Below, in pieces: positions 9,478-64,000 of a DNA stretch of 64,000 nt. Numbering within the stretch: position 1 is the first letter of the stretch; each line of letters begins with the position of its first letter. The position numbers were made by a program, and so were the translations under genes. Below the pieces are notes generated by a model. The model was not told where the DNA came from. It did not search any database and saw nothing but the letters and a program-made list of their open reading frames with translations. Source of the DNA: a bacterium (lineage in GTDB: Bacteria > Patescibacteriota > Minisyncoccia > UBA6257 > WO2-44-18); contig JAUSKF010000001.1 in assembly GCA_030646995.1 (NCBI GenBank), positions 5,700-69,699 of the forward strand, read 5' to 3'.

Positions 9478-9510
9478 ATCTTTTATTGAACTTATACTAT
9501 CAGAATCTCG

Positions 9511-9540: not shown

Positions 9541-9545
9541 AGCTC

Positions 9546-10265
9546 TTATGAGATCACTGTGCCGACGAAGTCCTTGTAATCCAGGTAGGCGTCCAAATTG
9601 GCGAAGTTGTCGCCCTTCATGATCACCACCGTTTTCTTCAACCGCTCGGCCTCCTTGGCGGCAATCGGATCAAACGGGACATTCATCCCGGGAATCCAGA
9701 CACTCCCGACCATCAGCCGGAACTTCTTCCATGAAATCGAGGAGATCGGCTTAGCGTCCGGGAACTTCTTCGGATCCTTGTCGCACAGCTGAACGATGTT
9801 GGAAAGATTGATCACCGATTGGGCGCCGTATTGCCTCGCGGCACGCACCGCGCAGTAATCGGTGGACCAACCCGGCTTCCAACCGGCCGCAATCGCCACC
9901 TGTTTTTCAGTGTCCAAAATAATCTCATAGTGCTTGATCAGGCGTGGCTCGGCGACGTCTTCAAAGATCGCTCGCAGGGCCTGCGCATTCAACCGTGTGG
10001 CGTTGATGCCAAGCCAGTCTTTGTTGTCATTGCTCAAGTTGTGGCCAAGAACCCGGCTCACGACCTCCTGAAAATGTCGGGCGAGAGCGCCGCCACCAGC
10101 AACCAGGACAAGTCGCAGATCCGGGTTCTCGCCGAGTCGTCGACGAACGAACTCATTGAGATTGGAAAGAAATTGCTCGCTTAATCCATTTTTTTGATCA
10201 GGATAGATCAAACTCCCTCCAACGGAGATCACAATCGTGGTGGAATCATCTTTGCCGCGAATCAT
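9546..10265 (-). CDS. pyrH: Amino-acid kinase family protein, probably archaeal-type UMP kinase
   Basis: IVISVGGSL N-terminal nucleotide-binding motif, then VLVAGGG; 239 aa. Confidence 0.5.
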   Translation of the reverse strand: MIRGKDDSTTIVISVGGSLIYPDQKNGLSEQFLSNLNEFVRRRLGENPDLRLVLVAGGGALARHFQEVVSRVLGHNLSNDNKDWLGINATRLNAQALRAIFEDVAEPRLIKHYEIILDTEKQVAIAAGWKPGWSTDYCAVRAARQYGAQSVINLSNIVQLCDKDPKKFPDAKPISSISWKKFRLMVGSVWIPGMNVPFDPIAAKEAERLKKTVVIMKGDNFANLDAYLDYKDFVGTVIS

Positions 10266-12269: not shown

Positions 12270-13154
12270 TTAATCGTATATTTTTAATCGGTCGCCGTCA
12301 AAAATCACTTTTACCGTGCCGCTTTGGTCGGTACGAAATATTTGCGAACCCACTGAAGCTAAACGACCCAGAGCCGAGGGCGTAGGGTGGCCATAGCTGT
12401 TCTTGCCGACTTCAATCACCGAAACCGCCGGACTTACCTCTTTCAAAAAATCCGCTTCACTGGAAAATCTGGAACCGTGATGCCCAACTTTCAAAATATG
12501 CGCATCTAAATCATATTTTCTCGCCAATATCTCCTCCGTCTCAAAGCCGATATCTGCGGTATAAAGCGCCCGCAGGCCTGCCCGCCCTGGCGGGCCGTCC
12601 TTTTCCAGCATAAACACTATCCCCGATTCATTCACCTTCTTCCCCTGCGCCGCGATTGCCGTGGGCCAAAGGATTTTAATTACCGCGTCTTCAAATTTTA
12701 TTTCATCTCCGGCAAACACTTTTATCTCCGGAATTTTCTTTTCCACAATCACTCTTTCAAAATCCGAATAAGCATCCGCCACACCTCTCCGCCCCGTAGT
12801 AATTACCGCTCCGACTTCGTAAGTCTTCAGCACATCAATCAGACCCCCAAAATGGTCTAAATCGGGATGGGTGGCTATCACTAAATCAATATAGCGATCG
12901 GTCGGAGTAAGTACCCTGCCCAACTCACTCAAAACCTTCGGATCCTTTCCACCGTCTACTAAAATTTGCACATCGCCGAAATCTATCAGCTCCCCATCCC
13001 CTTGCCCCACATCCAAAAAATACAACGCCAGATTTTTCGGCCTCATTTCCGCGAAAATCCCCCGTGCCACAAAAATATTCCCTGCCACTAATATCAGGAA
13101 TGTCACATACACCACTTTTTTCATAAACAAATTATTCGTTTTATTCATCACCAA
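12270..13154 (-). CDS. ComEC/Rec2-type metallo-beta-lactamase domain protein (standalone)
   Basis: YFLDVGQGD and HxDxDH-like ATHPDLDH motifs of the ComEC C-terminal lactamase domain; own N-terminal TM. Confidence 0.7.
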   Translation of the reverse strand: MVMNKTNNLFMKKVVYVTFLILVAGNIFVARGIFAEMRPKNLALYFLDVGQGDGELIDFGDVQILVDGGKDPKVLSELGRVLTPTDRYIDLVIATHPDLDHFGGLIDVLKTYEVGAVITTGRRGVADAYSDFERVIVEKKIPEIKVFAGDEIKFEDAVIKILWPTAIAAQGKKVNESGIVFMLEKDGPPGRAGLRALYTADIGFETEEILARKYDLDAHILKVGHHGSRFSSEADFLKEVSPAVSVIEVGKNSYGHPTPSALGRLASVGSQIFRTDQSGTVKVIFDGDRLKIYD

Positions 13155-13190
13155 ATTCTTTATCCTCTATTTTTATTCATTTCTAAAGTG

Positions 13191-13210
13191 TGTCCAACGC
13201 GTTAGACATC
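13191..13210. promoter_or_regulatory. 20 bp palindrome TGTCCAACGCGTTAGACATC (copy 1)
   Basis: Near-perfect palindrome overlapping the 3' end of the HTH gene; no flanking T-run. Confidence 0.35.
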
Positions 13211-13654
13211 CGATTGCTTAGTTACCCCAAGACCAGTGGGGCGCGGGGGATTTTTCAACAACTCCAGCAAATCAATGCCATCTAAAAAACCAACCGACCA
13301 TTGAGAAACAAGACTCCTATCCAAAATATTCCCTTTGTTCTTCGCTGGCCTCTTCGAAGACCTTGGACTTCCATAGTCGACGCTCTTGTTAAATAAACTC
13401 TTTCTTAGGGCACCTATTGTAGTACGAGATAACCACAAAGAACGCTCGATCTCCCGGGTCGATGCGCCCTGTCTAATAAGCAACGCGGCGGCCAATCTAT
13501 TTATGATTATTTGTTTTTCGTAAACGCTAAAAAGTGAGTTAACGGCATTTCGGAACTTAAAGTCGGAGAATTGTTCTAAGAAATTTTCCCAAACCACTCC
13601 CTGCCACTCCTTCCTGTATTTATTTTTAAAATCTTCCGGTTTAATGTTTTTCAT
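13202..13654 (-). CDS. Putative HTH DNA-binding protein (TrpR/YerC-like)
   Basis: 150 aa; helix-turn-helix-like segment GASTREIERSLWLSRTTIGAL. Confidence 0.35.
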   Translation of the reverse strand: MKNIKPEDFKNKYRKEWQGVVWENFLEQFSDFKFRNAVNSLFSVYEKQIIINRLAAALLIRQGASTREIERSLWLSRTTIGALRKSLFNKSVDYGSPRSSKRPAKNKGNILDRSLVSQWSVGFLDGIDLLELLKNPPRPTGLGVTKQSDV

Positions 13655-13695
13655 AAACTTTTTTTATCGATTAATTATCTTCCAATCTTTTTTCC

Positions 13696-13715
13696 ATGTC
13701 CAACGCGTTGGACAT
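13696..13715. promoter_or_regulatory. 20 bp perfect palindrome ATGTCCAACGCGTTGGACAT (copy 2)
   Basis: About 42 nt upstream of the HTH gene start; identical core to copy 1. Confidence 0.4.
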
Positions 13716-13729
13716 AGCAAAAATTCAGA

Positions 13730-15181
13730 TTATTGAAAAATGCTGAAGATGTTTGGGATTTTGGAGAATGCAGTGATTATTTTCGCGCAGACATTGATGA
13801 CTCCTAATTCGTAGCCGAGAAGGATACTTGCCGGAAAGCTCAATGCCCAAGCGAGCGGGTAGGCAATCAGCGAGGCGAAACCGATAAAAAATCCTAAGCC
13901 CATTGTGATGGGAATGAATTCCAAAAGCAAAACGTTGGAAATCAAACCAATCGGAGAAAATTGCCCGAAGTGATAGAGCAAAATCGGCAGTACAGCTATC
14001 TGCGCCGAAGTGGTGGTAGTCAGATGCTTCCGCCAATTGAAATATCCCGACTTGTCCTGCCATTTCAGCTTCTTTTCTATCCACGGCTGGAAGTAAGTAA
14101 TACCCAAAAGAGCCGCGAAGGACAATTGAAAGCCGATATCAAAGGCTAAAATGTGGGGATTGACACCAACCATCACCAACGCCGTCGCCGCCACGGCGTT
14201 GCGGAAGTAATAAACCCGATGCAATTTATCTGCGAGCAAAATTAGAAATCCCATCATCGCCGCGCGCACCACCGAAGCCTCCGCGCCCGTCATTACCACG
14301 AAGCCGAGCACCATTCCGGAGCTTATCCAAAATGAAAATCTTTTCGTAAACCACCACAGAGCAAGCAGATTTATCACCGTACTGATAATTACCGAAATGT
14401 TGTATCCCGAAAGCGCCACCAGATGGCTGGTGCCCGTTGCCCGCAATTTTTCTTTCAACTCATCGGAAAATTCCGCCGTCTCTCCCAGAGTTAAGCCGGC
14501 CATAAATACCGCCTGATCAAACGGCAAGACTTTTTTGAAACTGGATTCAAAGAAAGATTTTATTTTCAGCAGCTGCGCCTTCACCGGCGAACCATTCCCG
14601 CTAGATACCAATTCTATTTCCGGAAATCCCACCACGCCCGCTATCCCCTCTTTTTTGTAGTAGCTGGCGAATTCTGCATCCGGCTTTTTAACCACTCCCA
14701 CCACTTTTATCTCGTCGCCATAATCAAACGCGGGATAGCGGCTGGTGTTGATCTGAATATTTTCAATCACCAACTTCTGACTGCTCAATCTCTGCTCCGC
14801 TTCGCGAATCACTCCCGAAAACTGCACTTTTTCACCAAAGATTATCCGATTGTCTTGCTTGGCGTAATCAAAGGCAAAGAAGTACACGGAACCGACGACT
14901 AACGACAAAACGACCAACGACAAGGAAACCAATGACGAACCATCAACGACTAATGACTTACGACGAACAACGATGACCAGGAGGAACAAAAGCAAAATAA
15001 ACAATCCCGCGATTAGATATGCGTGCGTAAACCCGCTGACCACGCTCGCCACCAGCACTCCCGCCAGAAAAAAGCAGGCGAACCAGAAGAAAATGTCGTG
15101 CAGTTTCACCCCGTTAGAAATCCGCCCTTCCGTAGGAACGGCGGCAGCCGCTAGGGGCGGCTTATTTCTAACGGGGTTCAT
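13730..15181 (-). CDS. comEC: ComEC/Rec2 competence channel (membrane domain only)
   Basis: Multi-TM protein with the competence-domain signature HLVALSGYNISVI; contains a low-complexity insert VVRRKSLVVDGSSLVSLSLVVLS. Confidence 0.7.
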   Translation of the reverse strand: MNPVRNKPPLAAAAVPTEGRISNGVKLHDIFFWFACFFLAGVLVASVVSGFTHAYLIAGLFILLLFLLVIVVRRKSLVVDGSSLVSLSLVVLSLVVGSVYFFAFDYAKQDNRIIFGEKVQFSGVIREAEQRLSSQKLVIENIQINTSRYPAFDYGDEIKVVGVVKKPDAEFASYYKKEGIAGVVGFPEIELVSSGNGSPVKAQLLKIKSFFESSFKKVLPFDQAVFMAGLTLGETAEFSDELKEKLRATGTSHLVALSGYNISVIISTVINLLALWWFTKRFSFWISSGMVLGFVVMTGAEASVVRAAMMGFLILLADKLHRVYYFRNAVAATALVMVGVNPHILAFDIGFQLSFAALLGITYFQPWIEKKLKWQDKSGYFNWRKHLTTTTSAQIAVLPILLYHFGQFSPIGLISNVLLLEFIPITMGLGFFIGFASLIAYPLAWALSFPASILLGYELGVINVCAKIITAFSKIPNIFSIFQ

Positions 15182-17620: not shown

Positions 17621-19423
17621 TTATTCTGGCTTCTTTTTATTCAGTGATTCCCTGAGAGCATCGCGCAGGGCGCCGAGGTCTACCGGCTTTTTTTCACGGA
17701 TAATCTTTTCGGGTTTGGAATCAGCTGCCGCTTCGGAACGAAGCGGTAAATCACCAAGAGACATTGGCTTGGGCTTAGGAACGGCGGCTTGCAACTCCAC
17801 CCTTGGAGGCTCCGGCTTTGGCGCCACAGGCTTAGGCGGCGCGAGGACAGGCTTAACGATTTTAGGGGCTTCGGGCTTAATGAACTTCGGAACCAAGCTG
17901 ACTAACTTTTCCACTAAACTGGGCTTAGGAGTGGGCATAGGATCCCCCGGCCGAGTGAGTTTTACAGGCTGAATATCGGAAAACGCCGGGCGGGGCACGG
18001 GTTTAGCGGTGCGAAAATCTCCACCTCCGGCCGCCGGTTTGGGCCCCGAACCAAATGCATTTGGCACGGGGCGAGGCTTACGAAAGTCCCCTCCTCCGCC
18101 ACCCTCACTGCCAAATCTTTCATCGGATGGCGGTGGCACCGCCAGAAATTCTTTCGCAATCTTATCGGATACCTGCTTCAGAGGCGTGGCGTAAGTGCTA
18201 CGGGTGTGGGCAATAATCAAATCCTTATAAGAAATAGCTGGGGTAGCTACCGGAGGCAAGCCTTGAGCGGAAAAAGGGCGCGAAGAAATACCGTCAATCA
18301 TTAATTTGATATACACATTCGCCTTAGCCAAATTCACAATGTCGGTCGCCATAAAATCAGGCTCGAATTCCTTTTCTAAAAATTCCGCGTCTTCTCCTCC
18401 TACTCTGAAGGTAATAATCGTGCCGACGTTACCGAACACCGCGTCGCGAACTTTAGTATTTAAGTCGTGAGTAAGCTGGCGGATGTATTGGTGCGCCAAA
18501 ATCAGGCAGAGGCGGTATTTTCTGGCTTCAGAAAGAATGTTGGCAAAAGAATCGGTTGCAAAGTTCTGGAACTCGTCTACATATAGATAGAAATCTTTAC
18601 GGTCCGGCTCGGGAATATCCACGCGGGACATAGCCGCCAGCTGAAGCTTGGTGATAATCATTGAACCAAGCAAGGCCGAGTTATCTTCTCCGATTTTTCC
18701 TTTAGATAAATTGAAAATAAGAATCTTCCGCTCGTCTATCGCTTGGCGAAGATTAAGAGCCGATTTATTCTGACCTAAAATATTACGAACCAGCGGATTG
18801 GCTACGAACTGACCGATTTTGTTTTGAATGGCGGCCGTTGCTTCCGTTTCAAATTTTGCTGAATAACGCGCAAATTCATTCACCCAAAAACCTTTAATAA
18901 CCGGGTCTTTCAGCTGGTCTACTTTAGACTTGCGATAATCCTTGTCCGACAAAAGACGCTGAACGCCCAACATATTAGAGTCCGGAAACTCCAACATCGT
19001 GAGCAGAGAGTTGTTCAAAATGTATTCCATCCGAGGAGACCAGACGTCCGGCCATATTTTCTTGAACACACCCATCAGACCTGAAGCCACTAAATAACGG
19101 AACTCATCTTGTACCTGCTCAAGCGGATTAAAAGCAATCGGAAAATTAATATCAGCAGGGTCAAAATAAACCACATCTTTCACGCGGTCCTTGGGAACGA
19201 AGTCCAACATTTTTTCAGCAAAGTCTCCGTGCGGATCCATCACGCCCACGCCGTGGCCGTTGACCATATCGGAGATAACCATGTTTTCGAGTGTGGTCGT
19301 CTTGCCCATACCGGTCTTACCGATGAGGTACATATGCCGACGGCGGTCATCAATTTTGATGCCGAACTTAGTGGTCGCACCGCGGAAGTTAACTTGCCCG
19401 AAAATGTTTATATCTTTAGCCAT
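17621..19423 (-). CDS. P-loop ATPase of the FtsK/HerA/TraG (type IV secretion coupling-protein-like) superfamily with a Pro/Lys-rich C-terminal tail
   Basis: Walker A LIGKTGMGKTT, Walker B LYVDEFQNF, arginine-finger region ARKYRLCLILAHQ; 600 aa; no N-terminal TM. Confidence 0.55.
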   Translation of the reverse strand: MAKDINIFGQVNFRGATTKFGIKIDDRRRHMYLIGKTGMGKTTTLENMVISDMVNGHGVGVMDPHGDFAEKMLDFVPKDRVKDVVYFDPADINFPIAFNPLEQVQDEFRYLVASGLMGVFKKIWPDVWSPRMEYILNNSLLTMLEFPDSNMLGVQRLLSDKDYRKSKVDQLKDPVIKGFWVNEFARYSAKFETEATAAIQNKIGQFVANPLVRNILGQNKSALNLRQAIDERKILIFNLSKGKIGEDNSALLGSMIITKLQLAAMSRVDIPEPDRKDFYLYVDEFQNFATDSFANILSEARKYRLCLILAHQYIRQLTHDLNTKVRDAVFGNVGTIITFRVGGEDAEFLEKEFEPDFMATDIVNLAKANVYIKLMIDGISSRPFSAQGLPPVATPAISYKDLIIAHTRSTYATPLKQVSDKIAKEFLAVPPPSDERFGSEGGGGGDFRKPRPVPNAFGSGPKPAAGGGDFRTAKPVPRPAFSDIQPVKLTRPGDPMPTPKPSLVEKLVSLVPKFIKPEAPKIVKPVLAPPKPVAPKPEPPRVELQAAVPKPKPMSLGDLPLRSEAAADSKPEKIIREKKPVDLGALRDALRESLNKKKPE

Positions 19424-19474: not shown

Positions 19475-20734
19475 TCATTCGACAGGAAGACCAGCCGGAG
19501 GCTCGCCCTTCTTAGCGCCAAGCCGACGTAGTAACGGCGCTTCAACCACGATACTCGGGAAGTGATAAATAGTAGCCAACTCTTCGATATTCAAAATCGA
19601 AGTCCGCCTTGGCCAGTACAAACGCTTAAAAGACTCCCACATCTTACGCTTCTTATACCAAAGTCGGGTTTGTTTGAAGAGTTTCACGTTGCCGCGGATT
19701 AAAGTCATTGTATCCACATTCGGCCGAAATCCATTCAGATTTTGAGTGCTGAACTGATGAAAGGTCGCCATCACCGAACCGATATGGGAACGGGTAAACT
19801 TCTCGCGCTTATCAATAAAAACGAACCGAACATTAGTTTCAAATCCGAGCTGGCTAATCTTTTTTTCAATCGCCTCCACCACGTCTTTTTCACCGCCAGT
19901 CATTGCTACTAATTTATTAGATTCTTCTTTTTTCACTTCTTCCGCCCAAACCGGAGGCCGCGCCGGAGCGTGAACGAAATTCATAAAAAATTCATGGACG
20001 ACGCCGGCAAAAGTTTTCGGCGTGGGTTTTTTCCGGCCCACTAGTTTATCTCGAAGCGCCTCCGCTTCTTTTTTCCAGCCGTTGCCGGTCGGACTCACGA
20101 AAATCTGAATAGCAATCATCTCATCGTTTTTCAGCTTAGACATTACTTCGGTAATAGCCGCAATCGGGTCCAACCGCCGCTCGGGCGCTATCTCTTCAAA
20201 ATATTCATAAGTTTTTATCGGGTAGGCATTCTCACGTATCAAATGATAATCAGTGCCCCAGATGTCGTAAGTTTTATTCGGCAGAGTGCGCGGAAAAATA
20301 TCCATATAATCAGGAACTTCGTGCACCTCCGCGTCGGGATATTGAGCGTAAACTGCTGATTCCACAATATTTTTATAACCATTGGGGGTGCGGATATAGA
20401 AATGAACCCCTCCAGCAAATCCAACCAACTCAAAAGATATCCAGTCTTCACGCAAATGCCCTTCCAAATAAATTTGAAACAAACGAAAATCAAAAGAATA
20501 GATTCCATAAACCGCAGAAAAAATCTGCTCCATAGCTTTGGGGGTTTTCTCAATACCGGCCGGGATTTTCACTTCCAGCACCACCCAATTCATTGTCTTC
20601 AGATAACTAACGAAGATGTAGTACATCCAAAGCTTCCAAAAAACGTAAAATAGGGCGACGGGAAGGATTGCCCACCAAGCAACGGCAATAACCGAAAAGA
20701 TACTATTTAAAATTCCTGTAAAAAATTCAGGCAC
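19475..20734 (-). CDS. Hypothetical membrane protein encoded directly upstream of the T4SS-like ATPase gene
   Basis: 419 aa; N-terminal TM helices then a large soluble domain; likely in an operon with the ATPase. Confidence 0.45.
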   Translation of the reverse strand: MPEFFTGILNSIFSVIAVAWWAILPVALFYVFWKLWMYYIFVSYLKTMNWVVLEVKIPAGIEKTPKAMEQIFSAVYGIYSFDFRLFQIYLEGHLREDWISFELVGFAGGVHFYIRTPNGYKNIVESAVYAQYPDAEVHEVPDYMDIFPRTLPNKTYDIWGTDYHLIRENAYPIKTYEYFEEIAPERRLDPIAAITEVMSKLKNDEMIAIQIFVSPTGNGWKKEAEALRDKLVGRKKPTPKTFAGVVHEFFMNFVHAPARPPVWAEEVKKEESNKLVAMTGGEKDVVEAIEKKISQLGFETNVRFVFIDKREKFTRSHIGSVMATFHQFSTQNLNGFRPNVDTMTLIRGNVKLFKQTRLWYKKRKMWESFKRLYWPRRTSILNIEELATIYHFPSIVVEAPLLRRLGAKKGEPPAGLPVE

Positions 20735-31546: not shown

Positions 31547-32296
31547 TTACAGGTATAGGCGAATTATCACGTCTCCGAAAATAATCGTCAGCAAGGAAGC
31601 TAGCGCTAAAAATGGGCCGAACGGAATAGCATCTTTTAGTTTCTTTATTCTCAAGAGCAAAATAACCGCTCCGGCAACTCCACCCGCTACAAATGCCAGC
31701 GCCAATAAAATCAAGATTTTCGGCCAACCAAACAACAAACCCAAGGCTGCAACAAACTTCCAATCACCTATACCCATTCCCCTTCCTCTGCTCCCCAATA
31801 CCAACAATCCGATAATCAGGAATCCCACCACCGCTCCAAGCAAATGATTTATTAAAATAGGCCCCGAAAAGTCTTTAATAAATAACCCGATTGCCAGCAG
31901 CGCCAGCAAAACATTCAGTTGATCGGGAATTACCAAAAGGCGTAGATCGACCAGGGTGATTAGTAATAAGGTAAGCAAAATCGCGATCCAAATTGGCGCG
32001 TTTGGAAGATATAGCGGCGTCAGGGCGAAAATTAAACCTCCGGCAATCTCCACAATCGGATACTGCCAACCCAAAGCCTTGCCACACCGCCGACAACGTC
32101 CTAATTGAAACAAAAAACTCAAAAGCGGAATTAATTCATACCAACGGAGAATTTTCTTACAATAAGGACATCGGGAGCGGCCGGTTAAAATATCTTGCCG
32201 GAATATTTTTCCGCCGTCCTCATACCGCAAAGCCAAAACATTCAAAAAACTGCCTATGGCAGTACCTCCCAAAAATAAAATAACTGAAGCCAACAT
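31547..32296 (-). CDS. Prepilin peptidase (A24 family, PilD-like)
   Basis: N-terminal CPYC...CRRC zinc-binding region, followed by the polytopic peptidase domain that carries the conserved catalytic Asp residues. Confidence 0.75.
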   Translation of the reverse strand: MLASVILFLGGTAIGSFLNVLALRYEDGGKIFRQDILTGRSRCPYCKKILRWYELIPLLSFLFQLGRCRRCGKALGWQYPIVEIAGGLIFALTPLYLPNAPIWIAILLTLLLITLVDLRLLVIPDQLNVLLALLAIGLFIKDFSGPILINHLLGAVVGFLIIGLLVLGSRGRGMGIGDWKFVAALGLLFGWPKILILLALAFVAGGVAGAVILLLRIKKLKDAIPFGPFLALASLLTIIFGDVIIRLYL

Positions 32297-33366
32297 TAAA
32301 TCTTATCAACCAACAATTTCAACTCTCCGGGATTGAGCGAGTTTAATTCCGCGCTTTCCAAGGTGATTTTTTTCGCCTTCACAAGTTGCGCGAGCGAACG
32401 ATTCAAGGTGACCATTCCACTCTTGAGATTAGTTTCAATCACCAAATCGATCTGATGAGTTTTCTTCTCACGGATTAGATTACGGACTGCGGAATTTACC
32501 AACATCACCTCACAAGCGGGCACGCGTCCGCCGCCAATCTTCGGAATTAATCGCTTGGAAACTACGGCTACCAAGGTTGCCGCCAATTGTGATGCCGCCT
32601 GCGATTGCTTCTCCGGAGGGAAGGTGTCAATAATACGGTCAATCGTTTGCGCGGCGGAGTTGGTGTGCAAAGTAGAAAGCACTAAATGGCCCGTTTCTGC
32701 CGCAGTCATAGCAGTAGAGATAGATTCTACATCACGCATTTCGCCAATCATCACTACGTCTGGATCTTGCCGCAAAACCGATTTTAGAGCGCGGTGAAAC
32801 CCAACGGTATCGGTATTCACCTCACGCTGAGAGATAACTGCTTTATCGGGATCAAATAAATATTCAATAGGGTCTTCAATGGTAACGATGTGCTCCGCCC
32901 GAGTGCGATTTATTTCATCCAAAATGGCGGCTAGAGTAGTTGATTTCCCGTGACCGGCCGGACCGACGATCAGCACGAAGCCTTGAGTCAATTTAGCAAA
33001 ATCATGCAAGATGGGCGGCAATTCCAAGGCATCAATGCTGTCCACTTTCGCCGGAATTAAACGAGCGGCCATGGAAACATGCCCTTTTTGGAAATAAGTA
33101 TTGATACGGAAACGCACCCCAGCCTCATGGCTATAGCTAAAATCCAGCTCCTTTTGCCCATAAAATTTTTCTTTTTGTTCTTCGCTGAATAAAGCCTCCG
33201 CAATCCCGCTGGCGGTTTCCGCGTTAACTTCCGCCTCGTCTTTTATGGCGGCAAGCTCTCCGTCCACGCGCACATGGGGCTTGATTCCGACGTTAATATG
33301 CAAATCGGATGCCCCCGCGTTAACTGTGTCCGTTAAAAGCTTGTGAAGATATTTTTTGTAGTCCAT
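32296..33366 (-). CDS. pilT: Type IV pilus retraction ATPase PilT-like (start set at the internal Met)
   Basis: N-terminal ASDLHINVG, Walker A GPAGHGKSTT, Asp box, Walker B and His box of PilT/GspE secretion ATPases; about 356 aa. Confidence 0.75.
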   Translation of the reverse strand: MDYKKYLHKLLTDTVNAGASDLHINVGIKPHVRVDGELAAIKDEAEVNAETASGIAEALFSEEQKEKFYGQKELDFSYSHEAGVRFRINTYFQKGHVSMAARLIPAKVDSIDALELPPILHDFAKLTQGFVLIVGPAGHGKSTTLAAILDEINRTRAEHIVTIEDPIEYLFDPDKAVISQREVNTDTVGFHRALKSVLRQDPDVVMIGEMRDVESISTAMTAAETGHLVLSTLHTNSAAQTIDRIIDTFPPEKQSQAASQLAATLVAVVSKRLIPKIGGGRVPACEVMLVNSAVRNLIREKKTHQIDLVIETNLKSGMVTLNRSLAQLVKAKKITLESAELNSLNPGELKLLVDKI

Positions 33367-34060
33367 TGGCAATATTGAAAACGGAATTTGAAAAAAGCGC
33401 TTGCTCAATCTTCTGTTTTTCAGCAATCTCCCGCGTTTTATTCATTATAACATCCCACACATAACTCTTTATGTATGGGACGCCGTCTAAAGCCTGCGAA
33501 GCGCCGCCAAAATCACTGTGGAAAACATATTCTACTGAACCATTGCGAACGACAGAGAAAGTGGTGGACCGGCTTCCAATATCAACCACCAACTTACGCC
33601 CTAAGTCATTTTGAAAACGATGCGCAATTGCCGAACTTTCCAATTCCAACCGGACTAAACGCAGGGCGCACAAATCGGCGATAGCTTCATATTTTTCCGA
33701 AACCTCTTTAGGAATCGCCACAATAAAGTAACGCCCGTCATCCAACTGCGTAGCTTCCAGCCTATAAGTTGCGGGATTAGCGGGTATAAATTTCGGGTCA
33801 ACCACATCGGCAATGACGGTAAAAACATAAAAGGAAGGCAGGGACATTACCGCCGATTGCGTGCTTACGCCCATGCAAGACAAAAGATTGGTTAGCGCTC
33901 CGGCTGCATCTTCGGCATCAATTGGCCGAATGCTGGAGTGAAATGACTTAGAGGGACGCTCCAATATTCCCCAACTCAACACTTTTCCAAAGGCATTTTT
34001 TTCCAGCACCTTGATTGAACTGGTGCCGATGTCTATGCAAAGATATGACTCATCCAACAT
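33320..34060 (-). CDS. PilM-like actin-fold protein (type IV pilus assembly)
   Basis: N-terminal LCIDIGTSSIKVL phosphate-1 motif of the actin/HSP70 fold; 246 aa. The C-terminal tail overlaps the pilT upstream region, so the 3' boundary is uncertain. Confidence 0.45.
   Translation of the reverse strand: MLDESYLCIDIGTSSIKVLEKNAFGKVLSWGILERPSKSFHSSIRPIDAEDAAGALTNLLSCMGVSTQSAVMSLPSFYVFTVIADVVDPKFIPANPATYRLEATQLDDGRYFIVAIPKEVSEKYEAIADLCALRLVRLELESSAIAHRFQNDLGRKLVVDIGSRSTTFSVVRNGSVEYVFHSDFGGASQALDGVPYIKSYVWDVIMNKTREIAEKQKIEQALFSNSVFNIANGLQKISSQAFNGHS
33452..33484. promoter_or_regulatory. Palindromic motif B (ATCCCACACATAA-N4-TTATGTATGGGAC), 86-118 nt upstream of pilT
   Basis: 11 bp inverted arms; same motif at 51507-51539 and 53719-53751. 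Confidence 0.45.
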
Positions 34061-40449: not shown

Positions 40450-40983
40450 TTATTTTTTTCTTTCCAATACGGCGAAATGATAAGTATAAGGATTACCTTT
40501 GCTGGGCTGATGCATTTCTTGCTCAACCCAATTCCATTCTTCCCAAACTATTTCCGGAAAGTAAGCATCTCCCTCAAAGCCCTCATCGATACAAGTCAGA
40601 TACAGCTTGTCTACCAGATGTAGCACCGCACTGAAAACTTGCGCGCCGCCGATGAAAAACAATTCTGTTTCGCCGGTCATTTCAATAGATGCCACAACTT
40701 CGTGTAAAGATTTCACTTTGTGAAATCCGGCTCCGCCTCCGCCAGAAAGGGCGGATAGCGGATTGAAGTCGGAGCTGCGCGTGAGCACGTAATTAACCCG
40801 TCCGGGTAATGGCCCGCCAAGCAATCCGACGATTGATTCAGCGGTTTTTCTGCCCATTACTACCGCATGGCCAGAAGTAATCTTCTTGAATCTCTTCAAA
40901 TCAGCAGGCAGACGCCAAGGCAACTGACCATCTTTACCGATAACTCTTCCCTGTGAGCAGGCCGCGATGATTGAGAGTTTCAT
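40450..40983 (-). CDS. folA: Dihydrofolate reductase
   Basis: N-terminal LSIIAA...GVIGKDGQLPW; 177 aa; directly downstream of thyA. Confidence 0.8.
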   Translation of the reverse strand: MKLSIIAACSQGRVIGKDGQLPWRLPADLKRFKKITSGHAVVMGRKTAESIVGLLGGPLPGRVNYVLTRSSDFNPLSALSGGGGAGFHKVKSLHEVVASIEMTGETELFFIGGAQVFSAVLHLVDKLYLTCIDEGFEGDAYFPEIVWEEWNWVEQEMHQPSKGNPYTYHFAVLERKK

Positions 40984-41870
40984 ACTGCCATCGGCGCGTA
41001 AATATGGGGATGCGCTTTATAATCAACCAGCTTAATGTCGTTCATGGTAAACCTGTCGATGTCATCAATGTCCGGATTAAGCCACAATTTCGGCAAAGGA
41101 TATGGCTCCCGCTGAAGCATCAATTCAGTTGCATTTTTATGATCGAGGTCAGTGTAAATATGAACGTCGCTCAAAGTCATGATTAATTCGTGCGCAACAG
41201 TATCAGTGGCTTGCGCAATCATATTGAGAAGTAATGCGTAAGACGGAATGTTGAACGGGACGCCGAGAACCATATCGCAGCTCCTTTGGAAAAGATGCAG
41301 AGAAAGTTTGTGGTCGCTATTAACATAGCAATGAAATAACGTATGACAAGGAGGCAAACACATTTCATTCAATTCGCCAGGATTCCAAGCGGTAACCATA
41401 TGTCGCCGCCCGAAAGGATCCTTTTTGATTCCTTCAATTAGGTTGCGTATTTGATCAATTTCTACACCACCATAGGTTCGCCATTTACGCCACTGAACTC
41501 CATAAATTCTCCCGACATCCCCGTCAAATTTCGCTTTTGGTTTCCAATAATCTGAATTAGCGTTATCGTCCCAAATATGACAACCCATTTTCTGCAATTC
41601 TTTATTGTCTTGGCTACCAGTCAAAAACCACAAGAGTTCTGCTTTAACCAATTTGAATGGCTCCTGCTTGGTCGTAACGATTGGAAAACCGTCGGTCATT
41701 TTGAAGCGCATCTCTCTAACAAATACCGAACGATTATGCCCAATACTAGTACGATCGGGTCGGCCATCACCATTTTCCCAAACATCCTTCAAGACAGCTA
41801 GATACTGTTTCACTATTTTCCCTTTCAAAAAAACTAAAATGATTCTAACAAAAATCAGGGATTCCGGCAA
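40980..41870 (-). CDS. thyA: Thymidylate synthase (ThyA). The true start is probably downstream of the track start, perhaps a GTG at VKQYL.
   Basis: Active-site CHTLFHCYV region, RPDRTS...FPIVTTK fold motifs. Confidence 0.8.
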   Translation of the reverse strand: MPESLIFVRIILVFLKGKIVKQYLAVLKDVWENGDGRPDRTSIGHNRSVFVREMRFKMTDGFPIVTTKQEPFKLVKAELLWFLTGSQDNKELQKMGCHIWDDNANSDYWKPKAKFDGDVGRIYGVQWRKWRTYGGVEIDQIRNLIEGIKKDPFGRRHMVTAWNPGELNEMCLPPCHTLFHCYVNSDHKLSLHLFQRSCDMVLGVPFNIPSYALLLNMIAQATDTVAHELIMTLSDVHIYTDLDHKNATELMLQREPYPLPKLWLNPDIDDIDRFTMNDIKLVDYKAHPHIYAPMAV

Positions 41871-46701: not shown

Positions 46702-47463
46702 TTACTTACTCGGAAGTGAAATGGCGTTGGACTGTAACGTAACAGCCGTTTGCGCCAATGCTCTTCCGTTTAACGTTGCGCCGGTTATCATAGCAACGTT
46801 TGTTTTAGCCAGAAGATTTCCCTCAAAGTGCGAACCCGCTCCAAGGGTCACAGCACCGGCAACCTGCCAAAAAATATTCTTGGTCTGGGCGCCACCGCTT
46901 AAGAGCATCCGCTTGCCAGCGGCCATATCAAGAGTTCCCGCTATCTGGAAGATCCAGACCGCATTCGCGTCGCCTTGGGCGTCGAGCATAAGATCTGTCG
47001 GTATCGTCACAGCGGAATCCCATGTGTAAGTACCAGGGAGAAGGGTTTGACCGGTGACAGTTCCGGCCCCTACATTCAAGAAAGAACCAACTCCTGCTGG
47101 TCGCCCAGCAACATCAAGGTATACGGCTTCCATGTCGCTTACGGCCTGAGTCAGCAGTGTTGCATCTGTTGTTCTGCATGCAGGGCCAGTAGCGTCAACT
47201 GTGTATATCATCCCAGTCACTTCTACACAATCTAATCCGGTAATAGCCGCGCCCGTAATCGGACTTGTTCCGATATTGCCAGTAATCGCAGACGTAGGAA
47301 CATCAGTAATTCCGGTTTTTGATAGAATCACGAAATTACCCGCCGACAAAAGGTCAACTGAAGTCGCCGGGACAGCTGCAAACAGAGTGGTTACCCCAGC
47401 TAGACCGAGTGCCAAGGAGAAGACAGCCAAAGTTACTATTGAATTCTTATTAAACTTTTTCAT
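46702..47463 (-). CDS. DUF3494 (ice-binding-like) secreted protein, paralog of 3620..4681 without linker or sorting signal
   Basis: N-terminal signal/TM then [37 protein letters not shown], almost identical to the other copy. Confidence 0.6.
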   Translation of the reverse strand: MKKFNKNSIVTLAVFSLALGLAGVTTLFAAVPATSVDLLSAGNFVILSKTGITDVPTSAITGNIGTSPITGAAITGLDCVEVTGMIYTVDATGPACRTTDATLLTQAVSDMEAVYLDVAGRPAGVGSFLNVGAGTVTGQTLLPGTYTWDSAVTIPTDLMLDAQGDANAVWIFQIAGTLDMAAGKRMLLSGGAQTKNIFWQVAGAVTLGAGSHFEGNLLAKTNVAMITGATLNGRALAQTAVTLQSNAISLPSK

Positions 47464-59821: not shown

Positions 59822-61153
59822 ATGGATAAACCAATAAAACAAAAATTAAACATTCAATACGTTCCGGTGAGTGATTTGCGGCCGGCGTCGTACAATCCGC
59901 GCAAGCATTCCCAAGAACAGGCAGGTCAGCTAAAAGAAAGCATTAAGAAATTTGGACTAGTGGACCCATTACTGGTTAATTCTGCGCCCAGCCGAAAAGG
60001 AATTGTAATCGGCGGCCACTTCCGACTCGAGGTCGTTAAAGAAATGGGCTTCAAAGAAGTGCCGGTCGTCTACATCAATGTCCCCGACATCGAAAAGGAA
60101 AAAGAACTTTGCATCCGGTTAAATTTGAACACCGGCGAGTTCGACTGGGATCTATTGGCCGACTTCGAGGAGGTATTTCTGAAAGACGTTGGCTTCTCCA
60201 GCGAAGACTTGGACGATATCTTCGGCATAGACGATAATCCGGAAATATTTGATCTCCAAAAGGAGTTAAAGAAACTCGATATCACTAAGATTCTGATTAA
60301 GAAAGGAGATGTCTGGCAGTTGGGCACACACCGCCTTATGTGCGGCGACTCAACCACTGCCTCCGACTTCTCGAAGCTCATGGGCGGCGATAAGGCGTCG
60401 CTCTGCCTGACAGACCCACCGTATCGCCTGGACTACCTCAAAGGTAAGAAGAAAAACGGCAAAGCGACTGAAGGATTCGGGTACAAGCGTGACCGTAAAT
60501 ATTTAGAAACCGATTCAATTCCGGAGGACTTCACAGAAAAATGGATGGCGAATATCGCCAAAGCAGCCAAAGAGGATTTCCATATCATTGTATACGAAAA
60601 TTGGAAAAATATCCGACTTATTTGGGGCGAGATGGAGAAATATTGGAAAGTTCGCAATATGATTGTCTGGCATTTACCAAACCGGATGCAAGGTTTTGCG
60701 GCGAAGTATAGGTTCTTCAATAAGCACGACATTGCGATGGTTGGATCCTCGGGCAAATCCGAAATTCGCTTGAACTCCGAAGGCGAACTATTGGATAACG
60801 AATATCAGACGGCGCTTTATGCCACTGCCGGCAAGCCGCATTGGGAAGGCTACGAGAAAGGAAAGAAAATCTGCCCGACGGATTTTATTGAGTACAAATC
60901 GGCGGACGCAAAAAGTTCCGGACAGGGAATAATTTTCGGAACAAAGCCAGTAGAGATCCTGATTCCGTACATGAAAGTTTTAACCAAGCGCGGAGATCTG
61001 GTAGTTGAGCCGTTTGGAGGTAGTGGATCAACCTTGATCACGGCTGAGAAAATGAAGCGCCGTTGTTTCTTGATGGAAAAATCGCCAGTCTACGCCGAAG
61101 TGATAAAACATCGCTGGGAGAAATTAACTGGCCTTAAAGCCAAAAAATTATGA
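59822..61153 (+). CDS. ParB-like nuclease domain fused to a beta-class N6-adenine/N4-cytosine DNA methyltransferase
   Basis: N-terminal ParB box (VPVSDLRPASYNPRK...GGHFRLE); methyltransferase motif IV DPPY (LCLTDPPYRLDY) precedes motif I FGGSGST. Confidence 0.7.
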   Translation: MDKPIKQKLNIQYVPVSDLRPASYNPRKHSQEQAGQLKESIKKFGLVDPLLVNSAPSRKGIVIGGHFRLEVVKEMGFKEVPVVYINVPDIEKEKELCIRLNLNTGEFDWDLLADFEEVFLKDVGFSSEDLDDIFGIDDNPEIFDLQKELKKLDITKILIKKGDVWQLGTHRLMCGDSTTASDFSKLMGGDKASLCLTDPPYRLDYLKGKKKNGKATEGFGYKRDRKYLETDSIPEDFTEKWMANIAKAAKEDFHIIVYENWKNIRLIWGEMEKYWKVRNMIVWHLPNRMQGFAAKYRFFNKHDIAMVGSSGKSEIRLNSEGELLDNEYQTALYATAGKPHWEGYEKGKKICPTDFIEYKSADAKSSGQGIIFGTKPVEILIPYMKVLTKRGDLVVEPFGGSGSTLITAEKMKRRCFLMEKSPVYAEVIKHRWEKLTGLKAKKL

Positions 61154-61566
61154 AACGGGCAACTAAGGCGCTGCTTCTAGAGCAGCTGAAGAAAACTCCG
61201 ATTGTTCAGATCGCTTGCGAGAAGGCTGGCGTGGGTCGGGCAACGTACTATCGCTGGCGCAAGGAAGATCCAGAATTCTCTAAGATGGCGGACGAAGCCA
61301 TCTTAGAGGGCAGCTTTCTCGTTAATGATATGGCCGAGACCCAGCTCATGTCCGCCATTAGAGACCGGAACCTAACTGCGATTATCTTTTGGCTTAAGCA
61401 CCATCACTCCCAATACACCAACCGCTTGGAAATTAGCGGCCAGATTACTCATTTACGTAAAGAGCTCACCGAAGAAGAAAAACAGATGGTCGAAAAGGCA
61501 TTACGCTTGGCAATGCCGCAGGAAAACGAAGAGCTAAATCAAAACAATGGAGAACCAACTACCTAA
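61150..61566 (+). CDS. Phage terminase small subunit (HTH)
   Basis: 138 aa; HTH IACEKAGVGRATYYRWRKEDPEF; overlaps and directly precedes the terminase large subunit. Confidence 0.5.
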   Translation: MKRATKALLLEQLKKTPIVQIACEKAGVGRATYYRWRKEDPEFSKMADEAILEGSFLVNDMAETQLMSAIRDRNLTAIIFWLKHHHSQYTNRLEISGQITHLRKELTEEEKQMVEKALRLAMPQENEELNQNNGEPTT

Positions 61567-63019
61567 TAAACCCGAGGAAATCATCCAGAGAATGATTAAC
61601 GATCCGAATTTCCGGCTAGAACTAGTTCGGGATAGCCATTACTGGTTTATGCACTTTTATTTTCCTCATTATGTCACCTATCCGACCGCAGATTTCCAAA
61701 AGGAAATATTCCAGCTTACTGAATCCTCAGATAGAACGGTGGTGATCACGGCCTTCCGTGGCTCGGCGAAATCAACAATCTGTACCCTCTCATATGCTAT
61801 TTGGGCAATTCTCGGAAAGCAGGGAAAGAAGTTCGTAATAATGACCAGCCAAACTCAGCGCCAAGCTCGTCAGCATCTGATGAACTTGAAACGGGAGCTA
61901 GAGAGCAACCCCTTACTTTTGCGAGATTTAGGCCCCTTTCATGAGGAGCAAGATGAGTGGGGTGGATACTCTTTGGTGATCACTAAATATGGGGCAAGGA
62001 TTACCGCGGCATCCTCCGAGCAAAGTATAAGAGGACTGCGCCACATGAACTATCGGCCAGATCTGATAATTGCCGACGATATCGAGGACTTACAATCAAC
62101 GAGAACTAAAGAAGCGCGCGACAAGACTTACGACTGGCTGTTGGGCGACGTAATCCCAGCCGGTGATCAAAATACCAAGTTGATTATCGTGGGAAATCTT
62201 CTTCACGAGGATTCAGTAATGATGCGGCTGAAGTCGAGTATTGAGGAAGGGAAAATCGATGGAGTTTTCCGGGCGTACCCGATAATCGGTGAGGGCAATA
62301 AAATCCTTTGGCCTGGAAAATACCCGACGCTGGAAGCAGTGGAAAATGAAAAACGCAAAACAGGAAACGAGTCGGCTTGGAATCGGGAATACTTGTTACG
62401 GATCGTCAGCGATTCAGAACGAGTCGTTCATCCCGAATGGATTCAGCATTATAAAGAGCTGCCCGATAAAGATCATTTGCGCTATACCGCAACAGGAGTT
62501 GATCTGGCTATATCGCTAAAAGAAACCGCTGACCGCACAGCAATGGTTTCGGCAAATATTTATGGCTATGGCGAGGATCTTAAAATCTACATCCTTCCCA
62601 ATCCCATCAATGAGCGGCTGACATTTCCGCAGACGGTCGACCGGATAAAACTTTTGTCCAAGGTTCTTGGAGAGGGAGCGCAATCGCATATGTATATAGA
62701 AGAGGTTAGCTACCAGCGCTCGTTGATCGAACAACTTAACCGCGAGGGATACCACGCAGAAGGAGTTAAACTGCACGGCCAAGACAAACGCTCTCGGCTG
62801 GCTTTGACGACCGCCATGATTCAAAACGGTCAGATTGTTTTTCCCGAAAAAGGAGCCGAGGATTTAATTCAACAGCTGACTGGTTTTGGGGTGGAAAGAT
62901 TCGATGATCTTGCCGACGCTTTTTCTTTGCTCGTTCTAAAAACCACAACAGAAACTCATGCAGAGCCAAACATAACTTGGATAGACCTCGGGCCGCCGCG
63001 CGGGTGGCAGAGTTTTTAG
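61547..63019 (+). CDS. Phage terminase large subunit (Terminase_6/PBSX XtmB-like)
   Basis: N-terminal ATPase with Walker A AFRGSAKST and Walker B LIIADDIED; C-terminal RNase H-like nuclease domain (ATGVDLAIS...D...D); 490 aa. Confidence 0.75.
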   Translation: MENQLPNKPEEIIQRMINDPNFRLELVRDSHYWFMHFYFPHYVTYPTADFQKEIFQLTESSDRTVVITAFRGSAKSTICTLSYAIWAILGKQGKKFVIMTSQTQRQARQHLMNLKRELESNPLLLRDLGPFHEEQDEWGGYSLVITKYGARITAASSEQSIRGLRHMNYRPDLIIADDIEDLQSTRTKEARDKTYDWLLGDVIPAGDQNTKLIIVGNLLHEDSVMMRLKSSIEEGKIDGVFRAYPIIGEGNKILWPGKYPTLEAVENEKRKTGNESAWNREYLLRIVSDSERVVHPEWIQHYKELPDKDHLRYTATGVDLAISLKETADRTAMVSANIYGYGEDLKIYILPNPINERLTFPQTVDRIKLLSKVLGEGAQSHMYIEEVSYQRSLIEQLNREGYHAEGVKLHGQDKRSRLALTTAMIQNGQIVFPEKGAEDLIQQLTGFGVERFDDLADAFSLLVLKTTTETHAEPNITWIDLGPPRGWQSF

Positions 63020-63023
63020 ACTA

Positions 63024-63854
63024 TTAACAGTTCTTAGCTTTCCGCCAGCCAGCACTCACGGCATCTGCTTCACTGCAGAACCATTGTTCACCACGAGCTT
63101 CGTCAATTTGAGTTTTGGAGTACGATCCGCAACCCTCTACATGGAAAATTTTCTCTCCGGTCGAACTAATATTGCCCTTAATAGTGCACGAGGATCCGCT
63201 TGGCGCTACCGGGGTTGGAGTGGTTGGTTGTGACGCTGGAGGCGTAGTTTGAATTGGGCAGGAACCCCATAAACCAAGATTATTATCTCTCGCGACGCGC
63301 TGTGCTTCGATAAACTGACTTTGGTGTTTAACGTCTGGCGGGTATGTATAAGAAGAAGCAAAGCCACCACTTACCAATTTAAGATTGATGAAATCGTCGC
63401 CCACATAAACATAGCGAAGAAGACGGCCATATCTATCGGTGTCGGTAATATCTTTTTCTAGGCGTATTCTTTTGCCTTCAACGAGCTCTTTATTCCTAAC
63501 GCTGGCTTCTTTGCCAAAGCATTGGACGGGCTTTCGTGGATCAACCGTTTCCGGGGTGTCGATACCGATATACCGGACTCGCTGGCCGCCTTCGATTTCA
63601 ATTGTGTCGCCATCAATGACGCGAGTTACTAAAAATGTTCCGTTTGTATCTGCGGGGGGCCTTTTCACAATCGGGAGCGATTCTTCGCGATTGTCGTTTT
63701 GTGGAGCTGGCTGATCGGTGAGTTGCTGATTGTCTTTTAACTGAGCCACCGGATTCAGTGCCACTATAGTAACGGCTGAGAGTAAGCCAATGATTCCAAT
63801 GACAACCAATATTTCAACAAGCGTAAATCCTAAATCTTTCCTCACTTTTTTCAT
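63024..63854 (-). CDS. Type IV pilin-like N-terminus fused to a staphylococcal (micrococcal) nuclease-like domain
   Basis: Class III signal GFTLVEILVVIGIIGLL (prepilin peptidase site), then a thermonuclease core IDGDTIEIEGGQRVRYIGIDTPE...RYGRLLRYV; a Cys-rich C-terminal domain follows. Confidence 0.65.
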   Translation of the reverse strand: MKKVRKDLGFTLVEILVVIGIIGLLSAVTIVALNPVAQLKDNQQLTDQPAPQNDNREESLPIVKRPPADTNGTFLVTRVIDGDTIEIEGGQRVRYIGIDTPETVDPRKPVQCFGKEASVRNKELVEGKRIRLEKDITDTDRYGRLLRYVYVGDDFINLKLVSGGFASSYTYPPDVKHQSQFIEAQRVARDNNLGLWGSCPIQTTPPASQPTTPTPVAPSGSSCTIKGNISSTGEKIFHVEGCGSYSKTQIDEARGEQWFCSEADAVSAGWRKAKNC

Positions 63855-64000
63855 TAATCGTGGTTAATTTAATTTCTAGAGAGCCAAGGTATTAACAATA
63901 ATTTTACCGCCTTTGCATTGTAAGAGAATTGTGTCGTCAACTTTGACAGCTTCTGTTTTTGATGGGAATGGAATAACGCCTGTTTTTGTTGAGATTATGC

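Follow-up and report, generated by a model that had tools for sequence, protein, structure and literature searches.

What does the N-terminal signal of a type IV pilin do at the front of a nuclease? The question is raised by a gene near the end of a 64,000-nucleotide stretch of contig JAUSKF010000001.1 (GenBank assembly GCA_030646995.1, Patescibacteriota; this whole stretch is called the window below). There, the list of open reading frames (ORFs) contains a complete coding sequence (CDS) of 276 codons at 63024–63854 on the minus strand, beginning with ATG. An initial annotation, made from the sequence alone, described the product as a class III (prepilin) signal fused to a thermonuclease core and a Cys-rich C-terminal domain, and proposed a pseudopilin that would place nuclease activity on the pilus or cell surface. 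Our analysis bears out the three parts but not the pilin status: the protein is likely a substrate of prepilin peptidase without being a true pilin. As the reasonably probable explanation, we favour a membrane-tethered, extracellular, Ca2+-dependent staphylococcal nuclease (SNase) that is processed by a PilD-like peptidase and feeds nucleotide salvage, and in which the usual anchor of the family has been replaced by about 45 residues of a pilin. The protein is identical in the NCBI and Logan assemblies, where it is annotated as a 'thermonuclease family protein'.

Pilin-type signal, nuclease domain and sunset domain

The N-terminal sequence reads MKKVRKDLG|FTLVEILVVIGIIGLLSAVTIVALNP (the mature part is also given as FTLVEILVVIGIIGLLSAVTIVAL), with the bar at the predicted prepilin-peptidase cleavage site, G9|F10, so that the mature chain would start with FTLVE. 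Two hidden Markov models (HMMs) of pilin N-termini recognize it above their thresholds, namely, Pfam N_methyl (PF07963; 25.1 bits against a gathering cut-off of 21.2) and TIGR02532, IV_pilin_GFxxxE (22.8 bits against 16.3). All elements of a class III signal are present: a basic leader, Gly at position −1, Phe at +1, Glu at +5 and about 20 hydrophobic residues. In the AlphaFold2 model the latter form a helix of 22 residues (12–33), and the segment runs to ...IVALNP35. Residues ~1–45 are 50–69% identical to ordinary pilins of ~155 residues over the first 36–48 residues of the latter (E = 1e−5 to 1e−7). When residues 1–92 were used as a phmmer query against 1.84 billion representative proteins, 150 matches were listed; G-F/M-x-x-x-E is found in 145 of 149 of them, and the nuclease shares with the listed pilins the ALNP..Q motif just after the hydrophobic core. 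In a six-frame translation of the window, the nuclease is the only place where a hydrophobic tail follows a canonical class III motif. We considered an ordinary signal peptide that resembles a pilin signal, and rejected it because both HMM thresholds are passed and the identity to pilin N-termini reaches 50–69%. Thus, the textbook prepilin signal of the initial annotation holds up, the G|FTLVE motif is in place, and residues 1–45 are, judging from these similarities, of pilin origin.

What follows the signal is not a pilin. We found no full α1 helix of ~50 residues mounted on a globular β-sheet head: the modelled helix covers residues 12–33 only, and beyond about residue 45 the protein no longer resembles pilins. 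Residues 34–72 form a linker of 39 residues with no secondary structure, for which the predicted local distance difference test (pLDDT) score is 44–55 and falls below 50 at residues 38–54. In ordinary pilins, ALNP..Q leads into an amphipathic α1-C (…AQARDTQRRSDV…, ...AQARDTQR...) that packs on the β-sheet, whereas the nuclease has QLTDQPAPQNDN… at this place. Among the equivalog pilin models of the NCBIfam scan, none reaches its cut-off with the nuclease. According to the model, the pilin portion is the class III signal and the α1-N helix alone. Since the globular pilin head is absent, the protein does not qualify as a 'modular pilin' in the strict sense of Raynaud et al., nor does it belong among the pilins or pseudopilins. 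The initial annotation went too far in speaking of a 'pseudopilin' and of a location 'on the pilus': the α1-C and the head are missing, a disordered linker takes their place, and the arrangement occurs in a single genome, which gives no sign of selection for pilus assembly.

The remainder of the protein resolves into two folded units. The AlphaFold2 model, built on 51 homologues (mean pLDDT 81.7), shows the helix at 12–33, an unstructured region at 34–72, an SNase fold at ~73–197, a disordered region at ~198–222 and a small domain at 223–276. In the second linker, whose length and sequence differ among family members, the pLDDT is below 50 at residues 211–219. The SNase domain is identified by PF00565 (86.6 bits against a cut-off of 21, E = 2e−24; residues 92–196, profile positions 1–105 of 107), by a sequence match to staphylococcal nuclease in the PDB (E ~2e−18) and by Foldseek comparison of the model with PDB structures of SNase (probability 1.0, target-normalised template-modelling (TM) score 0.75–0.83, root-mean-square deviation 2.1–3.2 Å). 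Within the domain the pLDDT is mostly about 90–97, dropping to 58 near residues 101–110. The middle domain is thus an SNase both by HMM and by fold, as the initial annotation had it.

The active site is intact. In SNase, D21, D40 and T41 are the Ca2+ ligands and E43 is the general base, accompanied by R35 and R87 and by Y85, Y113 and Y115. By alignment with the PDB sequence, D21, D40, T41, E43, R35, R87, Y85, Y113 and Y115 correspond to D83, D99, T100, E102, R94, R144, Y142, Y169 and Y171 of our protein. All of these are invariant in the 51 homologues except for Y169 and Y171, the latter being conserved in at least 90%. On this basis, the domain is predicted to be a Ca2+-dependent DNase/RNase that yields 3′-nucleotides.

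The Cys-rich C-terminal domain noticed initially turned out to be a match to the NCBIfam 'sunset' model NF051437 (39.4 bits against a cut-off of 27) over residues 223–276, i.e. 54 residues. In the alignment of 51 family members it has four invariant Cys (223, 242, 260 and 276), an invariant His238 and an (A/S)AGWRKA motif. AlphaFold2 models it as a small domain of ββα type with pLDDT above 90, and a separate model of the sunset domain has a pLDDT of 86.6. It has no sequence match in the PDB. The top Foldseek match of the sunset model, a weak one, is the DNA-bound N-terminal domain of Ada (1u8b; E = 0.29, probability 0.69, TMq 0.52), and hhalign pairs WFCSE.EA..AGWRKA.NC of the sunset domain with FYANASEALAAGFRPCKRC of Ada over 22 columns (P = 3e−4, probability 39%). 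The Cys4 zinc site of Ada is not conserved column for column, the column of Ada Cys69 being Ala in the sunset domain, and no Pfam match connects the two domains. The sunset domain may be a nucleic-acid-binding module, which is a reasonable guess. No mention of it was found in the literature searched. Sunset domains also occur in other settings: NCBIfam has a model for a variant of ribosomal protein L17 with a sunset domain, and on four viral contigs of IMG/VR (L115, L118, L119 and L150) the match is limited to query residues ~216–275, at 57–59% identity.

The SNase-sunset family and its N-terminal tethers

To place the fusion among its relatives, we collected homologues of the SNase-linker-sunset arrangement. 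Among 8000 candidates scored, at least 7993 clusters (90% identity) belong to the family at E ≤ 1e−5. The closest relatives are 57–66% identical over the SNase and sunset domains, and the named members, 'thermonuclease family protein' or 'micrococcal nuclease', come mostly from Patescibacteria, Parcubacteria, Microgenomates and related groups. Across the 51 aligned members, conservation is strong in the SNase and sunset domains, whereas the N-terminus and both linkers are hypervariable; the invariant Cys are six (C112, C199, C223, C242, C260 and C276), and H238 is invariant as well. Five invariant Cys outside the anchor are of extracytoplasmic type. By sequence, then, the protein is a clear member of both the SNase superfamily and the Patescibacterial SNase-sunset family.

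The N-termini of the family are diverse. Of the top 120 full-length matches, the query included, 82 have one hydrophobic segment, 21 have two and five have a lipobox; six carry a variant start, KGFxQ[IV]P, in five no segment was detected, and a single one, the query, has the canonical class III signal. Based on this distribution, a surface tether appears to be the conserved requirement of the family and the type of tether to be interchangeable. The cell-surface part of the initial proposal fits such a family, which is described as bearing an N-terminal anchor or a lipobox throughout.

The canonical signal was found in none of the relatives inspected. It is absent from the other 119 of the top 120 full-length homologues and from all 120 matches to residues 1–118, a search in which every match has at most 205 residues and the query itself was not returned, apparently owing to a length filter. 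A local SNase HMM made from the family alignment detected no SNase domain in 149 listed matches to residues 1–92; the 150th, P0196, is an SNase homologue without the class III motif. In this search of representatives, fusions more than 50% identical to their unfused relatives are hidden in the clusters of the latter, as is the query. The motif is likewise absent from the SNase ORFs recognized in 71 of 80 related loci from GTDB and from 76 viral SNase ORFs found in 80 IMG/VR loci. In total, ~386 homologues were inspected for a pilin signal and none carries it. The sequence cluster of the nuclease has a single member and no sister sequences. The suspicion in the initial annotation that such fusions are not commonly described was therefore well placed; the combination appears once, uncommented, in a published table (see below). 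The most economical history of the protein is that the 5′ part of a pilin gene replaced the family anchor in frame, presumably by recombination.

Two other kinds of start within the family resemble parts of a class III signal. Eight of 240 SNase homologues (P0032, P0039, P0040, P0048, P0053, P0056, P0121 and P0170) begin with M..K.K.. followed by KGF(I/V)Q(I/V)PLL, which has the Gly-Phe of a class III signal and a Pro in place of Glu+5. Three of six such starts tested match the archaeal Pilin_N profile (PF07790) below threshold, with 13–15 bits against 25.2, and none matches N_methyl. This start may be a non-canonical prepilin-like signal of the SNase-sunset family. In addition, M(F/R)G(F/Y)(S/A)(I/V)KQI stands at the very start of several of the closest relatives (P0002–P0004, P0008–P0010, P0027, P0046, P0061, P0083 and P0117); here Gly-Phe follows a two-residue leader, without Glu+5.

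Genomic surroundings

The features of the gene and of the window that bear on its function are collected in Table 1.

Table 1. Parts of the nuclease gene and other features discussed, in window coordinates
Feature	Coordinates	Strand	Basis or remark
Whole CDS: class III signal, α1-N helix, linker, SNase, Pro/Thr linker, sunset	63024..63854	−	Stop codon 63024-63026
Leader peptide MKKVRKDLG, residues 1-9; short, basic, ending in Gly−1	63828..63854	−	PF07963 and TIGR02532 matches
Mature N-terminus, F10-P35: Phe+1, Glu+5 (E14), hydrophobic α1-N helix, ALNP end	63750..63827	−	AlphaFold2, identity to pilins, hydropathy profile
Residues 36-72: short α1-C remnant VAQLKDNQQ, then Q/P/N/D-rich disordered linker	63639..63749	−	AlphaFold2 pLDDT
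SNase (thermonuclease) domain, residues 73-198, active site intact	63261..63638	−	PF00565, PDB alignment, Foldseek
Pro/Thr-rich disordered linker, residues 199-222, starting at invariant Cys199	63189..63260	−	AlphaFold2 pLDDT, family alignment
Sunset domain, residues 223-276	63027..63188	−	NF051437, AlphaFold2 pLDDT
3′ end of co-oriented upstream gene	63876..64000	−	Full gene in Logan contig L001, 256-1305; 349 residues; NCBI Q7S83_00420
Phage-type module	59822-63019	+	ParB-N6 DNA methylase 59822-61153; small-terminase-like helix-turn-helix protein 61150-61566; large terminase 61547-63019
Prepilin peptidase (PilD-like, A24), presumed processing enzyme	31547..32296	−	A24_N_bact 90.6 bits; Peptidase_A24 47.8 bits
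PilT-family type IV pilus retraction ATPase	32296..33426	−	TIGR01420 421 bits against a cut-off of 319; T2SSE PF00437
ComEC, split into two ORFs	12270-15181	−	Competence domain 13730-15181; metallo-β-lactamase domain 12270-13154

Two genes lie here in the same orientation, the nuclease gene being the second and the upstream one (Q7S83_00420) ending 21 nucleotides before the nuclease start; a promoter and terminator scan around the nuclease gene was uninformative. The upstream product is an orphan membrane protein that has no homologue besides itself and no family matches. Its residues 106–143, an α1-like segment of pilin type (VAALVVLGIFVLLVGVVVVALNPAAQLQNA), are 50% identical to residues 13–50 of the nuclease, but the protein lacks the G|F..E motif with Phe+1 and Glu+5; a start at the TTG of codon 99 would yield MRRHLSG|VAALV as leader. 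As an orphan, with neither homologues nor family matches, it was rejected as a conserved pilin partner. A local DNA duplication that would link it to the 5′ end of the nuclease gene was rejected as well, the two sharing only short chance repeats. Nor are pilin genes conserved neighbours of the family: in 71 related loci a motif search gave two matches, both of them spurious out-of-frame ORFs, and in none of the 71 does a real pilin gene lie within ~8 kb of the gene for the nuclease.

On its other side the nuclease gene converges with the phage-type module, the end of the large terminase (TerL) gene lying 4 nucleotides from the nuclease stop codon. Homologues of TerL, of the small terminase (TerS) or of the ParB-methylase lie within a few kilobases of SNase genes in four of 80 related GTDB loci (L052, L065, L072 and L075) and are absent from the other 76. 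In one of the four, from a metagenome-assembled genome (MAG) of Saccharibacteria (L075), the same convergent layout is found without TerL, and the ParB-methylase is 66% identical. In another, from Paceibacterota (L072, 4356–9972), two reverse-transcriptase genes and the gene of a large serine recombinase surround the SNase gene, with the TerL/TerS/ParB-methylase module 4 kb downstream; mobile elements or diversity-generating retroelements seem to abound in this region. No portal or capsid gene was seen in the window, no structural phage gene or integrase is present among the ORFs scanned in its last ~10 kb, and a scan for close relatives of TerL in IMG/VR returned none. Homologues of the SNase and SNase-sunset proteins are found on IMG/VR viral contigs, at no more than 50% identity to the nuclease, and SNase also occurs in PHROG nuclease families.

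Farther away, the window encodes pilus and competence functions, most of which the initial annotation had recognized. The prepilin peptidase is backed by its A24 domain scores and by its motifs, CPYC...CRRC (CxxC...CxxC) together with VIPD and GIGD, the two catalytic Asp motifs, and the PilT call by its TIGR01420 score (Table 1). The PilT gene indicates that this organism possesses a type IV pilus machinery, and a PilM-like gene lies on the same contig. ComEC is present as noted, albeit split into two ORFs, with a 150-residue ORF without family match between them (13202–13654). ComF, in contrast, was not found among the window ORFs scanned, and the link drawn to PilT and ComEC amounts to co-occurrence on a 64-kb contig, 30–50 kb from the nuclease gene.

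Several other genes of the window may be mentioned. Nucleotide-interconversion genes at 8875–10265 and 40450–41870 (minus strand) encode a nucleoside diphosphate kinase, a thymidylate synthase, a dihydrofolate reductase and a protein of the amino-acid-kinase family, possibly UMP kinase; they are compatible with a salvage-based nucleotide economy without being specific to one. Two ice-binding-like paralogues (PF11999, E ~1e−65) lie at 3620–4681 and 46702–47463, both on the minus strand. A coupling-protein ATPase similar to VirD4/TraG (TrwB_AAD_bind, TraG-D_C) is encoded at 17621–19423 (minus strand), next to an ORF of 419 residues without family match (19475–20734); the two may belong to a type IV secretion system or one that resembles conjugation.

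Possible roles and known systems

According to the explanation that we favour, the nuclease would be inserted with its N-terminus inside and its C-terminus outside. The PilD-like peptidase would remove MKKVRKDLG at the cytoplasmic face and probably N-methylate Phe10, after which the α1-N helix would keep the mature protein in the membrane. The flexible linker of ~39 residues would hold the nuclease and sunset domains outside the membrane, within reach of nucleic acids, which the sunset module may bind outside the cell. Environmental or host-derived DNA and RNA would then be cut to 3′-nucleotides and short oligonucleotides, which could be salvaged. This agrees with the published proposal that Saccharibacteria without de novo synthesis obtain nucleotides through an 'external micrococcal nuclease' (PMC6031116), with the surface-held Nuc2 of Staphylococcus aureus (PMC3994088) and with archaeal non-pilin exoproteins bearing class III signals (PMC2910488), the latter two being compared below. 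Several observations weigh against this explanation. The variant is seen in one genome only: the swap could be recent, neutral or even mildly deleterious, and Glu+5 may have been inherited rather than selected. The role in nucleotide scavenging is argued from ecology. In one genetically tractable Saccharibacterium, a member of a different Patescibacterial lineage, ComEC is dispensable for growth (PMC10633639), which argues against DNA uptake as the nucleotide source there. Finally, the phage-like packaging module that adjoins the nuclease gene, with the two running towards each other, could mean a different role.

The closest competing explanation makes more of the pilin signal. The processed α1-N could be built into a type IV fibre, at its tip or as an occasional subunit, so that the nuclease would reach beyond the wall and S-layer, and retraction by PilT could return bound or partly digested DNA to the cell surface. 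Glu+5 of pilins has a role in assembly, not in cleavage, and the signal of our protein is fully canonical in having Phe+1, Glu+5 and the ALNP motif; in addition, PilD, PilT and the PilM-like protein are encoded on the same contig, and the co-oriented upstream gene also encodes an α1-like segment. Enzyme-bearing modular pilins (with peptidases) are among published predictions, and the representatives shown for the commonest architectures belong in many cases to bacteria of the candidate phyla radiation (PMC8179133); in archaea, a pilus-like system, the 'bindosome', is believed to assemble substrate-binding proteins that carry a class III signal but lack a pilin head (PMC2910488). However, the model has neither an α1-C helix nor a globular pilin domain, and because these are absent the contacts of an outer shell or of a minor-pilin tip are missing. 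The fusion is unique among the ~386 homologues and no other surfaced in the search of representatives, real pilin genes are lacking around the 71 related loci, and the window ORFs scanned yielded no major pilin, PilB or PilC. We regard incorporation into a fibre as unlikely, and we give slightly less credence still to the fuller version, in which the nuclease and a DNA-binding module on a type IV pilus or short pseudopilus digest host or environmental DNA and RNA at a distance and PilT returns the products. A role in competence appears comparably doubtful. Here the protein would act in the manner of EndA or NucA, at the membrane beside the DNA-uptake apparatus, cutting captured double-stranded DNA or degrading one strand for import of the other through ComEC; a membrane anchor, an external nuclease and a putative DNA-binding module make up a topology of the EndA/NucA kind, and the split ComEC, PilT and PilD share the contig. 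Natural competence has been demonstrated in Saccharibacteria (PMC10633639). On the other hand, the nuclease gene has no operon link to the pilus and competence genes, which are 30–50 kb away, the flanks of only one of 80 family loci contain a ComEC match, and the protein has no match to an EndA/NucA-type family in Pfam or NCBIfam at E ≤ 1. Moreover, SNase is a non-specific, processive DNase/RNase that proceeds to mono- and dinucleotides, which suits degradation better than limited processing.

The adjoining module suggests yet another role, as cargo of a mobile element or prophage, in which the nuclease would be tied to the ParB-methylase, TerS and TerL and serve, for example, in degrading rival DNA, in exclusion or as an aid to release. 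The 4-nucleotide spacing, the recurrence of module genes near SNase genes in four of the 80 loci, the serine integrase and reverse transcriptases around the Paceibacterota gene and the presence of SNase and SNase-sunset proteins on viral contigs and in PHROG families all point this way. Yet 76 of the 80 loci lack the module, the end of the window shows no structural phage genes or integrase, the nuclease is 57–66% identical to chromosomal Patescibacterial genes as against at most 50% to those on viral contigs, and the pilin signal occurs in none of 76 viral SNase ORFs, so that we find this role improbable. No more credible is that the fusion is an artefact or a dead end, i.e. a chimera of assembly, or a recent in-frame fusion whose unprocessed signal acts as a signal-anchor. 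The single-member cluster without sister sequences and the orphan upstream neighbour would fit such an origin. Against it, the NCBI MAG contig (70,795 bp) and the Logan assembly of SRR13727527, which was generated separately though possibly from the same reads, both contain the same join, the frame, the start codon and the leader are all intact, and the join falls exactly at the position of the family's anchor; besides, the 'unprocessed anchor' half of this proposal overlaps functionally with the membrane-tethered nuclease that we favour.

The nuclease is best described as a surface SNase in which a class III signal precedes non-pilin cargo; to the specialist it is a curiosity and a test substrate more than a surprise. 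Its occurrence in a single genome without a pilin head limits its immediate biological weight, and it is the whole SNase-sunset family, more than this variant, that bears on the nucleotide supply of bacteria without nucleotide biosynthesis. Nevertheless, the variant shows that the tether of a very abundant family of Patescibacterial surface nucleases may be exchanged. If PilD processes the signal, the protein would be a clean natural case in bacteria of a class III signal on a non-pilin enzyme, a usage documented mainly in archaea. With 276 residues and an easily assayed activity, it could serve to separate the minimal needs of prepilin-peptidase cleavage from those of pilus incorporation, and to ask whether bacteria of the candidate phyla display enzymes on pili. 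Display on a filament, if true, would be the first case of a type IV filament armed with an enzyme to forage for nucleic acids, in a cell that is ultra-small and possibly episymbiotic, and would parallel in bacteria the 'bindosome' idea of archaea.

Compared with the Patescibacterial thermonuclease family (PF00565 with PF27542, NF051437), the protein has the same invariant residues, the same Cys pattern and the same two disordered linkers; it differs in its tether, which is a plain anchor, two segments or a lipobox in the relatives and a canonical class III signal here. EndA of Streptococcus pneumoniae and NucA of Bacillus subtilis are also membrane-anchored extracellular nucleases, of organisms with ComEC-based uptake. 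They have the ββα-Me fold of DNA/RNA non-specific endonucleases, however, which is unrelated to SNase, no match to a domain of this type was obtained for our protein in Pfam or NCBIfam at E ≤ 1, and its gene has no com linkage. Closer in catalytic terms are the nucleases of Staphylococcus aureus, secreted Nuc and Nuc2, which share its fold and active-site residues. An N-terminal anchor keeps Nuc2, a functional SNase, on the surface (PMC3994088), and N-terminal tethering to the outer face of the membrane is likewise expected here. Nuc2, in turn, has an ordinary signal-anchor, no sunset domain and no long linkers, and is only ~33% identical to our protein. The NucI equivalog model gives 115.9 bits, below its cut-off of 250, so the protein is not a NucI ortholog.

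The use of a pilin signal invites comparison with two further systems. Raynaud et al. catalogued 264 architectures of proteins containing IPR012902 and noted peptidase modules among them (PMC8179133). Their Dataset S1 lists the combination IPR012902-IPR016071 (SNase-like) with a count of 1 and without comment (PMC8179133), and the combination has thus been recorded but not described; no nuclease-bearing pilin is known to have been discussed or characterised. Modular pilins such as PilB and PilC of Streptococcus sanguinis and our protein have in common an IPR012902-type motif and a module unrelated to pilus biology (PMC8179133). In modular pilins, the effector sits on a complete pilin module (α1 and β-sheet head) through a short linker, whereas the nuclease follows the signal and α1-N through 39 disordered residues. 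Some archaeal exoproteins that are not pilins, among them substrate-binding proteins and proteases, bear class III signals (PMC2910488). The archaeal proteins have a PibD-type signal without Phe+1 and Glu+5, their cargoes are binding proteins and proteases, and their system includes a dedicated assembly ATPase and membrane protein (BasEF), for which no counterpart was identified in the case of the nuclease. What the archaeal exoproteins and the nuclease share is the basic design, namely, a signal and helix joined directly to a soluble protein without a pilin head, with retention at the surface after cleavage of the prepilin type.

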